DNA of 64,000 nucleotides from a virus: IMG/VR virus record IMGVR_UViG_3300034283_002790, positions 96,001 to 160,000 of that record, one strand, 5' to 3'. The position numbers were made by a program, and so were the translations under genes. This document shows, one piece after another, positions 19,583-61,026 of this stretch. Under the pieces are notes generated by a model. It worked only from the letters and a program-made list of their open reading frames with translations. It was not told the DNA's origin and ran no database searches. Each line of letters starts with the position of its first letter. The stretch's first letter is position 1.

Positions 19583-19978
19583 TTATTCTGTTGCAAATCC
19601 AAATTTTATGACACCACCTTCATTATAAACATATGCCTCATATCTGAAACCTGTACTCGGTTTAAAATAAACCTCATCCCCAGAGTTAGGAACCTTAATA
19701 TAATCGGTCGGTTTTAAATATTTTCCTTTCAAGTTTTTTGAAACCCCACCAACTGACGGAGATCCCTTAACAGTCAGAATTTCAAAATTTGTATTATCAT
19801 TTTGAGTTAGTTCATACAAACCCACCCAATCTTTTTTTTCTGTGGGTGTCATATCTCGTTTTGCCAAACTTTTGACAGTACCTCCAACAGATCCGTTATT
19901 TTGATTCTCCATTTCTTGAATGGTTCTCTTAACCAACCGTACAAGTTCGGATTCAGTTAATCTTATAACTTTTTTCAT
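19583..19978 (-). CDS. Leader-bearing protein
   Basis: MKKVIRLTESELVRLVKRTIQE. Confidence 0.75.
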   Translation of the reverse strand: MKKVIRLTESELVRLVKRTIQEMENQNNGSVGGTVKSLAKRDMTPTEKKDWVGLYELTQNDNTNFEILTVKGSPSVGGVSKNLKGKYLKPTDYIKVPNSGDEVYFKPSTGFRYEAYVYNEGGVIKFGFATE

Positions 19979-21624: not shown

Positions 21625-21655
21625 AAAAAACCCCACCTGTTAAAGATGGGGTTTT
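21625..21655 (-). terminator. Intrinsic terminator downstream of the CRISPR array
   Basis: AAAACCCCA-loop-TGGGGTTTTTT on the minus strand; near-identical to 27679-27707. Confidence 0.75.
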
Positions 21656-21666
21656 AATATAATAAA

Positions 21667-22084
21667 TTCAAATACAGATCATATACAACTTTCAGAAAAT
21701 TTAAATGTAGATAGATTTGTTGTGATTACCCTACAAATAAAGACCATACACAACTCAAAACAAACGATTGTGCGACCTTAATTTGTTGTGATTACCCTTC
21801 AAATAAAGATCATACACAACTTTAGGTTGTTATACAGCACTTTCCATCTCGTTGTGATTACCCTTCAAATAAAGATCATACACAACTGTTTTCTATTAAT
21901 CGGCAAACCGTTGAGCGTTGTGATTACCCTTCAAATAAAGATCATACACAACTTGAAAAAGGAAGCGCTAACCCAAATCCCCGTTGTGATTACCCTTCAA
22001 ATAAAGATCATACACAACGCGATAAGTTGTCTTCTACACTCTTCCTCCGTTGTGATTACCCTTCAAATAAAGATCACACACAAC
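21667..22084 (-). CRISPR. CRISPR array: 6 full 36-bp repeats plus one half repeat, 30-bp spacers
   Basis: Repeat GTTGTGATTACCCTTCAAATAAAGATCATACACAAC (+) at 21719 (2 mismatches), 21785, 21851, 21917, 21983 and 22049 (1 mismatch); five 30-bp spacers; half repeat 21667-21689 followed by a 29-bp spacer; strand inferred from tnpB, the terminator and the repeat family. Confidence 0.97.
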
Positions 22085-22120
22085 TGTGTATTTTGGAAAC
22101 ATAATAAATGAAAGGCTCTT

Positions 22121-22183
22121 GTTGTCATTATAAACCCACAAATTGAGTTTTGACCACAATTAAATTGGATGTCACACCACCCA
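22121..22183 (-). ncRNA. Candidate omegaRNA/tracr-like scaffold (two hairpins) between tnpB and the array
   Basis: Hairpin TGGGTG-GTGTGA-CATCCA (22166-22183) and a 40-nt hairpin ending TAATGACAAC (22121-22160), a 9/10 match to the repeat 3' end TAATCACAAC. Confidence 0.4.
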
Positions 22184-22194
22184 GTTTTTGTTTC

Positions 22195-23442
22195 CTAATT
22201 TTCTAAATTTTCAAAGAACATTTTCTTACCTAAGTCCCGAATGTTTAAAGCCGCATTGTAATCACGATCAATTTCGCTTTTGCAGTTTTTACATTCCCAA
22301 ACCCGTTGAGATAAAAGTAGATTTTCATTCACCGTACCGCAATTATTACATTTCTTGCTTGATGGAAAAAATCTATCCACTTTAATTGTGTGTTTCCCGC
22401 TGGAGACACTTTTATAAATAATCATTTCACGTAACATCCCAAGACCAGCGTCCAAAATATTTCGATTTAAGTTTGATTTTTGTTTAACGTTGGTACCAGG
22501 ATTTTCAACGGTACCTTTATTTGATTTCGTCATTTCAACAAGATCCAAATCTTCCATACAAATCAAATCATATTGATCGACCAGTCTTTTGGATACATTG
22601 TGATTATAATTTTTTCTACAGTTTGATATTTTTTCTTCTAAAACATGAACTTTTTTATTCAACTTTTTCCAGTTGTTAGAGTACTTTACACATTTGTCCC
22701 TATTACTTATCAATTTTGACAAATGATTTAAATGTTGGTTCAGGTATTTTGGATTTTTAATAACTTCATTTTCTGATGTAACAATCAAAGATTTTACACC
22801 CGCATCGATACCAACCACAGACTTGACTTCCTTTTTTGAAACATCGTTCTTATATTCTACCAAAATTGACACATAGTACTTTCCATGTTTTTTGGAAATC
22901 GTATATTTTTTTGGAATTCCAATAATTGGTCTATGATATTGGACTTTGATATTTCCAGTAATTTTTGGTAAAGTTAACTTACCATCTTCTTTTATTCCGT
23001 GTTTTTGTATATTAGTATTAATTAATCGTGTTGTAAAACTTTGTTTTTGGTCATTCTTTTTTGTAAAATCCGGTGGTGTGGGACGTTTCATATCGGTCTT
23101 CGGATTGTTTTTAATGACTTGTTTATAGATTTTTGTATTATCAAAAAAATCTGACCAAGCCTTACTTAAATGTTCCATTTCATACATATAAATCTGTGAA
23201 TCGTGATCATTTAAAAAGGGTGCCGATTTTCTATAATTTGTTATATGTTTATTTAATCCAAAATGTGATAAATTTGGTTTTCCACCCAGAGAATATATTT
23301 GTCGATCAAGATCGATGGTTAGGTTTCGAACATACCTTGCCGCTTGTATTGCACCCTCGATTTGTTTAATCTGGGTTTTATTGGGGTATATTCGATACTT
23401 AAACCCCTTATTTAATACTCCAACCTTTTTTTCTCTTTTCAT
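22195..23442 (-). CDS. tnpB: TnpB / Cas12f-like RNA-guided RuvC nuclease, CRISPR-adjacent
   Basis: FKYRIYP HTH_OrfB start; RuvC-I VGIDAG, RuvC-II ICMEDL, CNNC/CKNC zinc finger, RuvC-III DRDYNAALNI; D-E-D triad intact; no tnpA nearby. Confidence 0.92.
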   Translation of the reverse strand: MKREKKVGVLNKGFKYRIYPNKTQIKQIEGAIQAARYVRNLTIDLDRQIYSLGGKPNLSHFGLNKHITNYRKSAPFLNDHDSQIYMYEMEHLSKAWSDFFDNTKIYKQVIKNNPKTDMKRPTPPDFTKKNDQKQSFTTRLINTNIQKHGIKEDGKLTLPKITGNIKVQYHRPIIGIPKKYTISKKHGKYYVSILVEYKNDVSKKEVKSVVGIDAGVKSLIVTSENEVIKNPKYLNQHLNHLSKLISNRDKCVKYSNNWKKLNKKVHVLEEKISNCRKNYNHNVSKRLVDQYDLICMEDLDLVEMTKSNKGTVENPGTNVKQKSNLNRNILDAGLGMLREMIIYKSVSSGKHTIKVDRFFPSSKKCNNCGTVNENLLLSQRVWECKNCKSEIDRDYNAALNIRDLGKKMFFENLEN

Positions 23443-23446
23443 AGTA

Positions 23447-23478
23447 CAAATTTAGAATTAATTTTTTCAATAGTCAAA
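23447..23478 (-). promoter_or_regulatory. Bacteroidota sigma-A promoter of tnpB
   Basis: TTTG-N20-TAAATTTG ending 4 nt before the ATG. Confidence 0.75.
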
Positions 23479-23537
23479 TTTTTTTTCAAAATATTTTTAA
23501 AAAATATTCGGACGAAGTCCGGAACGGGTGTTCCAAC

Positions 23538-25393: not shown

Positions 25394-25636
25394 TTACTTA
25401 TGCAATTTATCGGCCAAGTTTTCCCATTCATCATGTACACTAAACCTTTTTTTGTTTTCTCGTCTAAGTGCTTTGGCCAATTCTTCTTTTGTATAATCTT
25501 TAAGTAGTGTCGGACTATATCCAAGTCTCATAAGTATTCTACGGGCATCTCCTTTAAGAGAGTCCACATCTTCATTGATCACAAGTTTAACAATTCTTGT
25601 TAAATCTGATTCTGTAAGTCTAACTATTTTTTTCAT
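25394..25636 (-). CDS. Leader-bearing small protein
   Basis: MKKIVRLTESDLTRIVKLVINE. Confidence 0.75.
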   Translation of the reverse strand: MKKIVRLTESDLTRIVKLVINEDVDSLKGDARRILMRLGYSPTLLKDYTKEELAKALRRENKKRFSVHDEWENLADKLHK

Positions 25637-25651
25637 AATTATATTCCTTTA

Positions 25652-25996
25652 TTAAAATAAACTATTAAGGGGGCCTAAAGTTACAACACCTGTAGTATCG
25701 TTATAATCAAATCTCCCAAACTCTTTATTGGAATTTATTGGTCTATTATTAATATCAAACTTACAATAATTTTTAAGATAGGTATTTTCTATTTTACCAA
25801 AATGTATTTGTTTTCCATCTTCACTCTTTAACCATCCGTACTCAGATCTAGTGTATGGTTTTTTGAAATACCCATTCATACAAGTCATTTCATCTTTAGT
25901 TAAGATGAAGTCTTTTTCAGGATCGGGAGATTCATTTAAAACTTTCATCACAATACGAGTTAAATCTCTTTCTGTAAGTCTAATTATTTTTTTCAT
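25652..25996 (-). CDS. Leader-bearing small protein
   Basis: MKKIIRLTERDLTRIVMKVLNE. Confidence 0.75.
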   Translation of the reverse strand: MKKIIRLTERDLTRIVMKVLNESPDPEKDFILTKDEMTCMNGYFKKPYTRSEYGWLKSEDGKQIHFGKIENTYLKNYCKFDINNRPINSNKEFGRFDYNDTTGVVTLGPLNSLF

Positions 25997-26056
25997 AATT
26001 TTTATTTATAAATATACTTTTAAAAAAACCCCACCGTTTATGTTAATTAACAAACT

Positions 26057-26392
26057 CTAATAATCAAACTCAACTATTTTTACGTTTTCAACCGTATCAT
26101 TTGTTATGTTATTCCAAATCTCTCTAAAATTATCTTCGTCCGTTTCATTAATTTTGTAAATTCCAGGATAAAAAAATTCTTTGCTTACCGCTAACAGTTT
26201 GCCAAATTTTTTGGCAACAAGATCAACGTTATCATTGTCAATATTATAATATTTATTTTCGGTTTTTTTCAAACTATCTATTTTTTCTTTAATAATAGAT
26301 TGATCATCATTTTCTTGATCATCATTTTCTTTAATGATTCTTTTAACAATACGAGTTAAATCTCTTTCTGTTAGTCTTATAATTTTTTTCAT
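26057..26392 (-). CDS. Leader-bearing small protein
   Basis: MKKIIRLTERDLTRIVKRIIKE. Confidence 0.75.
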   Translation of the reverse strand: MKKIIRLTERDLTRIVKRIIKENDDQENDDQSIIKEKIDSLKKTENKYYNIDNDNVDLVAKKFGKLLAVSKEFFYPGIYKINETDEDNFREIWNNITNDTVENVKIVEFDY

Positions 26393-26442: not shown

Positions 26443-26838
26443 CTATAAAGAGGTGTATCCCCTTAAATTGTAAACCTCAGACAACCACTCTTTTATAAGT
26501 TCTTTAATGTCAGGATTGAAAAGACCAACGTCAAGTAAAGGTTTCCATATTTCTTCGTAATTAATGAAAACATAATCATATTTTCTCTCGTAAATCATCA
26601 AATTACGTTTTGGTTCATATCTATATAAAGTCCAATCAGGTTCTTCTTCACTTTGAACTTGCTCCAAGTCATCAAACAAATGTAAAAACTCCATTGGTGA
26701 ATTTATATCCATGATTTCAAAAAAGTTATCCTTTCCACCCACACTACTAAAAGCAATTTGAATGCCTTTTGATCTTATAAGTTGTTTTAATAAAACCTTA
26801 AGATTATTTTTCTGACTTTCTGTAATGAGGTATTTCAT
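26443..26838 (-). CDS. Leader-bearing protein, paralog of the C-terminal module of 33125..34603
   Basis: MKYLITESQ; VGG...INSPMEFLHLFDDL...YEEIWK...IKELIKEWLSEVYNL. Confidence 0.7.
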   Translation of the reverse strand: MKYLITESQKNNLKVLLKQLIRSKGIQIAFSSVGGKDNFFEIMDINSPMEFLHLFDDLEQVQSEEEPDWTLYRYEPKRNLMIYERKYDYVFINYEEIWKPLLDVGLFNPDIKELIKEWLSEVYNLRGYTSL

Positions 26839-26863
26839 ATAAATGATAAATATACTGGAAAAC

Positions 26864-26893
26864 AAAAAACCCCCTAACTAAGAGGGGGGTTTT
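26864..26893 (-). terminator. Intrinsic terminator
   Basis: AAACCCCC...GGGGGTTTTTT. Confidence 0.7.
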
Positions 26894-60850: not shown

Positions 60851-60874
60851 ATTTTTTAATTTTAATAAGTTTTG

Positions 60875-60947
60875 CGGTCCCGACGGGATTCGAACCCGTA
60901 TCTCGCACCGTGACAGGGTGGAATTGTAACCATTCAACCACGGGACC
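60875..60947 (-). tRNA. tRNA-Asp (GTC)
   Basis: GGTCCCG/CGGGACC acceptor stem, loop CTGTCAC, GGTTCGAATCC T arm. Confidence 0.92.
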
Positions 60948-60959
60948 AAGTTAATTTAG

Positions 60960-61026
60960 CAGTCAGGACAGGATTCGAACCTGTAATCCTCATTTACGAT
61001 GCGTACTCCAATAACGCCACCTGACT
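60960..61026 (-). ncRNA. tRNA-like RNA with a truncated anticodon arm (67 nt)
   Basis: AGTCAGG/CCTGACT acceptor, GCGT/ACGC D stem, ACAGG-TTCGAAT-CCTGT T arm; only 15 nt between position 26 and the T stem. Confidence 0.65.

Follow-up and report, generated by a model that had tools for sequence, protein, structure and literature searches.

Which effector does a CRISPR array serve when its repeats look like those of type VI-B (Cas13b) systems, yet the gene beside it encodes a TnpB? This question is raised by a locus on the minus strand of the IMG/VR virus record IMGVR_UViG_3300034283_002790, a 187,384-bp record that has 30.7% G+C, is about 64% complete by CheckV and of which bases 96001-160000 (64,000 nucleotides) are here called the window. 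The record codes for a T4-type capsid protein (Gp23) and portal protein (Gp20), and the virus is a T4-like jumbo phage. Our analysis suggests that the locus is probably a type V-like CRISPR system in miniature, carried by the phage and self-contained: an intermediate between transposon and CRISPR of the TranC or V-U kind.

Six 36-nucleotide repeats lie on the minus strand between 21719 and 22084. R1 (22049-22084) carries one mismatch, R2-R5 (21983-22018, 21917-21952, 21851-21886 and 21785-21820) are identical, with the sequence GTTGTGTATGATCTTTATTTGAAGGGTAATCACAAC, and R6 (21719-21754) carries two mismatches. The period of 66 leaves five spacers of 30 nucleotides each, S1 (22019-22048), S2 (21953-21982), S3 (21887-21916), S4 (21821-21850) and S5 (21755-21784). 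An initial annotation of this DNA had read the repeats, spacer length and strand in the same way and had placed the array at 21719-22084, which holds for the six repeats; the array itself continues for about 65 nucleotides past that start, through a last spacer, S6, of 29 nucleotides (21690-21718), to a decayed seventh, terminal repeat (21654-21689) that has kept its 5′ half and lost its 3′ half. The closing GTTG...CAAC stem and inner stem that had been proposed for the repeat are also present in the predicted fold, which has a GUUGUG/CACAAC outer stem and a 6-bp inner stem (−8.8 kcal/mol, z −2.8), as in Cas13b repeats; the minimum-free-energy fold of the whole region has a z-score of −1.4.

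The array starts 110 nucleotides downstream of an open reading frame of 415 codons on the same strand (22195-23442), and the linker between them is non-coding. A promoter-like region (23441-23489, minus strand) stands directly upstream of this gene, after a terminator-like hairpin of the preceding gene (23509-23521, minus strand; sequence scan), with sigma-70-like hexamer matches at 23489-23461, 23477-23449 and 23470-23441 (consensus scan only). Beyond the array, an intrinsic terminator (21627-21655, minus strand) with a 12-bp stem followed by a T run closes the unit, and an equivalent hairpin also follows the arrays of two relatives, L025 and L106. Promoter, nuclease gene, scaffold, array and terminator would thus form a single transcription unit.

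The protein, P0001, matches the guided_TnpB profile NF040570 over its full length (275 bits), in agreement with the neighbouring TnpB named by the initial annotation, and contains the Pfam domains HTH_OrfB_IS605, OrfB_IS605 and Cas12f1-like_TNB. Its RuvC residues D213, E297 and D394 and its zinc-ribbon cysteines are intact, and these positions are invariant in 117 sequences. A structural model built from a 117-sequence alignment (predicted local distance difference test (pLDDT) score of 90.9) superseded an earlier one from 21 sequences (pLDDT 62.5). Its closest structures are the ISDra2 and ISFba1 TnpBs, with template modelling (TM) scores of 0.72-0.89, and it matches TnpB better than LaTranC (PDB 9jfq; TM 0.68/0.60), AsCas12f (TM approximately 0.6) or RdCas12n (TMq 0.28). 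By sequence, the best PDB match is RdCas12n (9J09, 146.6 bits), and PADLOC scores P0001 at 248 bits for Cas12u4 and 244 bits for Cas12f, whereas it misses the NCBIfam cut-offs for Cas12f2 (55 bits versus 450) and c2c8 (132 versus 350). We therefore rejected an assignment to Cas12f or Cas12n: P0001 falls below the hidden Markov model cut-offs of these families, has no REC/WED expansions and is structurally nearer to TnpB. An IS200/IS605 mobile element was likewise set aside, as no Y1 TnpA is present in the 187-kb record, the gene and scaffold are each single-copy in this genome, as is the array, and the array replaces the single guide. The identical protein is found on 106 public contigs, where its label goes no further than 'putative transposase'. 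At residues ~101-130 (window ~23053-23142), P0001 has an insertion of about 25 residues that the model renders as a long helix leading into a loop; the insertion is shared with its closest relatives, P0002, P0003 and P0005, is similar but slightly larger in P0006, and is absent from members of 382-392 amino acids.

Relatives were sought in 5.8 billion proteins, IMG/VR and JGI metagenomes. Those fetched, at 40-78% protein identity (L025/026, L106, L107, L108 (equal to L027/028/030), L029, L109-L113 and L114-L116), gave a comparison set of 11 distinct contigs with 14 scaffold-array units and 8 repeat types. Every one of these relatives has the layout of gene, scaffold and array, in that order, with a scaffold of approximately 80-115 nucleotides. 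They have in common a linker motif, ACTGGGTGGTGTGACATCCAATTTAATT...GACAAGAAyC.TTC (a motif string for the P0001 family is also given as GGGTGGTGTGACATCC), and their arrays have a 65-66-nucleotide period and repeats ending in ..GAAAGGTAATCACAAC. By comparison, in a set of about 150 loci with identities of 36% or lower, neither the linker motif nor an array downstream of the gene was found in any. A single clade with 100% support unites the 21 proteins at 47% identity or more; its branch is long and lies inside ordinary TnpBs. The P0001 family is rare: the scaffold was found on five IMG/VR contigs, and none of 401 sampled Bacteroidota genomes held a relative at 40% identity or more.

These data bear on the possibility that an ordinary IS200/IS605 TnpB with a single-guide omega-RNA was inserted by accident beside an unrelated phage array. 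The full-length TnpB score and the fold nearest to ISDra2 TnpB would suit such an event, as would the frequency of TnpB insertions in phages (416 phage records contain relatives). However, the arrangement is kept over 40-78% protein identity across phages and samples, by proteins that form a discrete and well-supported clade, and the linker is better conserved than the gene, being about 95% identical between the window and L025 where the proteins are 78% identical. With the single-copy state, the missing TnpA and the pairing between scaffold and repeat described below, an accidental juxtaposition is extremely improbable. As a separate observation, arrays with a 55-80-nucleotide period lie directly upstream of the tnpB start on three viral contigs at 33-34% identity (L044:3784-3971, L047:3686-3942 and L035:2336-2443), and may be independent TnpB-array associations.

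Covariation predicts that the linker (22085-22189, minus strand) is a structured, tracrRNA-like RNA, derived from omega-RNA, that docks the repeat. All its elements are on the minus strand: a P1 hairpin (22166-22183; UGGGUG/CAUCCA) with the loop UGUGA at 22172-22176, a variable P2 hairpin (~22121-22160) and an anti-repeat, GCCUUUC (22110-22116). Pairing was counted on the 14-unit alignment for a four-element structure (P1, P2, anti-repeat and pseudoknot), which is 87.5% paired, compared with 36-48% when the partners are slid; 12 pairs have changed on both sides, and none of 500 shuffles scored as high. Two compensatory pairs fall in the P1 stem, and in P2 all 8 of 8 pairs have changed on both sides, its sequence differing per lineage and its fold position staying constant. 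The anti-repeat, (G/A)CCUUUC, pairs with the repeat GAAGGG in a helix that is 86% paired, and with the repeat tail UCACA the P1 loop UGUGA makes a pseudoknot whose pairing is kept in every one of the 14 units (100%), including a double change in L029 (loop G to A, repeat C to U). The scaffold matches no Rfam family, whether the gathering threshold or E≤10 is applied. A 16-nucleotide inverted repeat, 22155-22170 with 22375-22390 inside the open reading frame, was considered as part of the scaffold and dropped because a free-standing unit in L115 has no upstream open reading frame; the same unit places the scaffold 5′ end near ACUGGG.

The origin of this arrangement is suggested by canonical TnpB relatives at 33-37% identity, in which the omega-RNA ends in ..GAAGCAAGAATCCCCCG-loop-CGGGGGAGTGTCAA, followed by the guide. 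The counterpart in the phage family is ..GAAGACAAGAAyCnTTC / GAAAGGTAATCACAAC, so that the phage scaffold and the 3′ half of the repeat appear to be the two strands of the last omega-RNA hairpin, split in the loop. The first unit is still unsplit in L114-L116 and L029, where scaffold, short loop, GAAAGGTAATCACAAC and spacer follow one another directly, and L115 has a second unsplit unit upstream of the gene, with its own TATATTTG promoter-like motif and no open reading frame before it. In both L114 (1975-2310 and 3477-3810) and L115 (3616-3990 and 5158-5630), which are marine or estuarine contigs, two scaffold-array units bracket the nuclease gene; the upstream unit of each comes with a promoter-like TATATTTG motif of its own, and in both units an unsplit scaffold, repeat tag and spacer come first.

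The unsplit first units indicate that the spacer 3′ of the repeat is the one that guides, a polarity shared with TnpB and type V and opposite to that of Cas13b. Together, the co-inherited layout, the scaffold-repeat pairing and this type V polarity argue that the array serves the TnpB-like nuclease and not Cas13b. The first of the two explanations offered by the initial annotation, that the TnpB has adopted a VI-B-type array, is therefore strongly supported, with gene, scaffold and array co-inherited down to 40% identity and compensatory changes in a scaffold that pairs with the repeat; its second element, the borrowing of host Cas1-Cas2, stays an inference.

We then examined the class of the repeat. 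A scan for the pattern GTTG-N18-AGGGTAATCACAAC in one genome per species (185,579 species) gave arrays in, among others, Bergeyella zoohelcum, two Capnocytophaga species and a Bacteroidales metagenome-assembled genome (MAG). For Bergeyella, C. stomatis and the Bacteroidales MAG, the array directly follows a gene to which the NCBIfam Cas13b model gives 432-839 bits. In B. zoohelcum, the array lies 59 nucleotides after a 1224-amino-acid Cas13b gene (NF038190, 839 bits), and its repeat, which the initial annotation had cited, was recovered from the genome as GTTGGAACTGCTCTCATTTTGGAGGGTAATCACAAC, 27/36 identical to the window repeat. A Cas13b locus found by protein search, independently of the repeat pattern (G130), has the repeat GTTGTATATGGTCTTAATTTGAAAGGTAAATACAAC, identical at 30 of 36 positions over the full length, and the Bacteroidales Cas13b-array repeat is identical at 29. 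Overall, the window repeat is 24-30/36 identical to repeats next to verified cas13b genes, as expected from the VI-B class to which it had been assigned. When the phage family (eight repeat types) is set against VI-B (five repeats), the mean identity of 36 is 26.3 within the phage family, 27.1 within VI-B and 25.0 between the two, versus 9.7 (maximum 19) for shuffled controls; three of the five VI-B repeats came from a pattern that fixes 18 positions, and the unbiased values are those of the two protein-search repeats (30 and 24 of 36). By identity and predicted fold, the phage-family and VI-B repeats form one repeat class. An IMG/VR search with a repeat pattern requiring AGGG gave no matches (the relatives carry AAGG), and a text search of the literature for the repeat tail returned nothing. 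The tail presumably also resembles the Cas12f1 repeat end (..GAAGGAAUGCAAC), a likeness for which a string search of the literature found nothing and which we did not use as evidence.

This membership is what would favour an orphan VI-B mini-array, in which a host Cas13b uses the crRNAs against rival phage transcripts, or is decoyed by them, and the TnpB is a mere neighbour. The repeat sits inside the VI-B class, with its closest identities to the G130 and Bacteroidales repeats and with fold, length and spacer size alike, and the phage has a TnpB-like protein as its sole effector and is without cas13b. However, 8 repeat lineages have inherited gene, scaffold and array together, and the half of the repeat that is conserved, its 3′ half, covaries with the scaffold of the phage. 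All five VI-B repeats examined have the same 5′ GTTG, which in phage relatives has become ATTG, GGTG or GATG, breaking the terminal stem, and the guide is 3′ of the repeat in the unsplit first units. Cas13b is itself rare, being found in 3/401 sampled Bacteroidota genomes, and the phage scaffold was absent from all five Cas13b-bearing genomes checked. The proposal that the array reprograms or decoys host Cas13b is thus disfavoured as its main function: it is possible as a side effect, poor as the primary explanation and, in the form of an orphan mini-array, unlikely.

Consistent with an array that serves the phage nuclease, no cas13b gene (NF038190) was found in the 187-kb record or in five related, fragmentary viral records, which extends to the rest of the record the search for a Cas13 with two HEPN domains that had been proposed. 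The only open reading frames above 900 codons in the record encode a collagen-repeat protein and a 1,790-amino-acid protein with a weak von Willebrand factor A match. Neither cas1 nor cas2 was found in the 187-kb record, and cas1 was absent from the five related fragmentary records.

Arrays of related phages were compared, as had also been proposed, and their spacer sets differ completely between close relatives, even at near-identical loci. The sole spacer common to L109 and L110 has lineage-specific spacers on its proximal side, and repeats have decayed at the effector-distal end in every case, in the window as in L025, L106, L107, L108 and L115. The shared distal spacer and the distal decay indicate polarised acquisition at the effector-proximal end, which largely resolves a polarity that had been called ambiguous on the grounds that both ends of the array are degenerate. 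The spacer turnover, in phage records without cas1 or cas2, suggests that adaptation enzymes are borrowed from the host, and host Cas1-Cas2 probably fills the phage array. There is precedent for such a route: VI-B arrays of Flavobacterium columnare are filled in trans by the Cas1 of a type II-C module, as the initial annotation had stated, and GTTGT ends are common to II-C and VI-B repeats on the leader-distal side (PMC8092290). Host-mediated adaptation has also been proposed for the Cas12r of Thermus phages, with its I-E-like repeats (10.64898/2026.04.20.719267).

We propose that the unit yields three products, the 415-amino-acid RuvC nuclease, a scaffold of about 100 nucleotides descended from omega-RNA, and a CRISPR RNA (crRNA) precursor. 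The 3′ ~16-20 nucleotides of the repeat (GAAGGGUAAUCACAAC) would dock on the scaffold in two ways, CCUUUC:GAAGGG and UGUGA:UCACA, which together would rebuild the last hairpin and tail of omega-RNA, and the spacer directly 3′ of the repeat would act as a DNA guide, as in TnpB and Cas12. From sequence we infer a nuclease that would cleave DNA at a protospacer-adjacent motif (PAM) with processed crRNAs; its likely targets, assuming conflict between phages, would be rival mobile elements or phages. Most likely, the TnpB lineage took over a Cas13b-class array of Bacteroidota, or shares ancestry with one, and host Cas1-Cas2 would be able, thanks to the VI-B array format, to add spacers in trans, in the way that VI-B arrays are served by the II-C module.

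The opposite direction of transfer would have the repeat born from the last hairpin and tail of a TnpB omega-RNA, with Cas13b loci taking over such arrays later. In its favour, the 3′ half of the repeat can be aligned to the terminal hairpin of canonical omega-RNAs, on its 3′ strand and tail, unsplit forms are present within the clade, and published models allow arrays to arise from duplicated omega-RNA segments (PMC10691335). The likeness to the omega-RNA tail is, however, weak at the base level, and this TnpB clade is rare (five IMG/VR contigs, 0/401 Bacteroidota genomes), whereas established VI-B arrays occur in several orders of Bacteroidota. We regard this order of events as very unlikely.

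Several observations weigh against the reading of the locus as a self-contained system built on a VI-B-type array. No protospacer was found for any spacer, and both the PAM and the type of target hang on one. With 82 family spacers as queries, local BLAST of the entire phage record and of every fetched locus returned the arrays themselves only; blastn of the array against INPHARED (50,697 phage records) gave only chance 26-nucleotide matches in Enterococcus phages; exact 22-24-nucleotide searches with S1-S4 in IMG/VR gave nothing; and no spacer of the Cas13b arrays matched the phage. As the record is about 64% complete, cas13b, cas1 or cas2 could sit in the missing third. The capsid protein is approximately 41% identical to Flavobacterium and Microcystis phage capsids, about equally, and so does not point to a host. 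In the RNA, the pseudoknot and anti-repeat compensations each come from a single lineage (L029), and one or two mismatches interrupt the anti-repeat in the L109-L113, L112 and L114-L116 groups. Finally, derivation of the repeat may run either way between VI-B and the phage family.

Among known systems, the closest in kind is TranC, which reportedly was first described by Jin et al. in Cell in 2025. The phage locus is TranC-like in having a nuclease of TnpB size and fold, a short downstream array and an omega-RNA (or reRNA) split into tracrRNA-like and crRNA parts, although, as seen above, LaTranC is a poorer structural match to P0001 than plain TnpB. TnpB-derived, array-linked mini-effectors are established from V-U6 to V-U45 (PMC10691335). 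As described in two preprints, TranC clade 9 has a mean length of 414 amino acids and a 38-bp repeat, and its tested member, CauTranC9, comes from a Caudoviricetes genome (10.1101/2025.09.28.678669; 10.64898/2026.03.27.714800). The P0001 family may be TranC clade 9: compared by description only, the length (415 amino acids) and viral origin fit, whereas the 36-nucleotide repeat does not. With Cas12n (V-U4) and Cas12f (V-F) it shares the tracrRNA-dependent miniature type V kind.

A second comparison is with the Cas12r-CRISPR of Thermus Lalka phages, which is also a phage-borne TnpB-derived nuclease with a small array, no adaptation genes and repeats of a host class (I-E for Cas12r); Cas12r differs in its 564 amino acids, independence of a tracrRNA, 29-bp repeats, repeat tag 3′ of the spacer and origin from an unrelated TnpB branch (10.64898/2026.04.20.719267). 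IS200/IS605 TnpBs (ISDra2 and ISFba1; PDB 8H1J, 8EXA and 8IAZ) resemble P0001 in fold, size and RuvC and zinc-ribbon motifs, and the window scaffold appears homologous to the 3′ region of their omega-RNA, including its terminal hairpin and tail; unlike them, the window locus is single-copy, has no TnpA and has an array of spacers in place of a single fixed guide, and the P0001 subclade carries the ~25-residue insertion. The VI-B loci of Bergeyella, Capnocytophaga, Chryseobacterium and Bacteroidales share with the window 36-nucleotide GTTG...TTTGRAGGGTAWWHACAAC repeats, 30-nucleotide spacers, the predicted hairpin, an array that directly follows the effector gene, and a locus without cas1 and cas2. 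Their effector, however, is a HEPN RNase of about 1,200 amino acids in place of a 415-amino-acid RuvC nuclease, and their crRNA has the spacer 5′ and the repeat 3′, whereas the phage family has a scaffold RNA, repeat-then-spacer polarity and an unconserved repeat 5′ end.

The kind of system is therefore already described, and the VI-B-class repeats are its unusual part; we found no statement of a type V-like effector with VI-B-class repeats in the searchable literature. If our reading holds, the locus would catch the transition from transposon to CRISPR in a natural phage family, with unsplit and split guide forms in one clade. It suggests that a TnpB lineage may become CRISPR-guided by fitting its scaffold to the repeats of another CRISPR type, and copying a host array format would explain adaptivity without Cas1-Cas2 of its own. 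A family of 382-415-amino-acid nucleases with a scaffold of about 100 nucleotides and a natural single-guide design (L114-L116) would also be a candidate compact editor.

A bolder and unlikely proposal is that phage and host VI-B systems are interoperable, the array being filled by host II-C Cas1-Cas2 and crRNA precursors being read across systems. Bz-type repeats hold GAAGGG/GGAGGG and UCACA docking sites, so a spacer 3′ of any host VI-B repeat could be put to use by the phage scaffold and TnpB, and phage spacers could conversely be loaded by host Cas13b. In that case, a class 2 effector that cuts DNA would parasitise, or share memory with, an RNA-targeting CRISPR type.

Around the unit, small multi-copy genes with a common N-terminal leader of about 25 residues occur in the window (19583-19978, 25394-26392 and 26443-26865) and in the flanks of L025, L106, L107 and L111, and homologues of the gene at 26443 lie on both sides of the nuclease-array unit in L106; these surroundings look like a hypervariable cassette region. 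Related IMG/VR records (G404-G408, holding L025 and L027-L030) are 8-25% complete by CheckV at 29-73 kb, which, with 64% at 187 kb, puts all these phages at approximately 290 kb, the size of jumbo phages. Elsewhere in the record, the collagen-repeat protein (G000:C1:2-4057, L007; 1,352 amino acids) has nine stretches of collagen triple-helix repeats (390 bits) and is followed by the 1,790-amino-acid protein (G000:C1:5467-10836), for which the weak von Willebrand factor A domain match was the only one; both are presumably fibre or decoration proteins. A 693-amino-acid ClpB/ClpA-like double AAA+ ATPase (AAA_2, 232 bits, and a ClpB D2-small domain) is encoded at G000:C1:57798-59876 (L010:798-2876). 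Finally, a putative second tRNA, called by Rfam (39.6 bits) and not reported by ARAGORN, lies at window 60960-61026 (minus strand) beside a tRNA-Asp (60874-60947).

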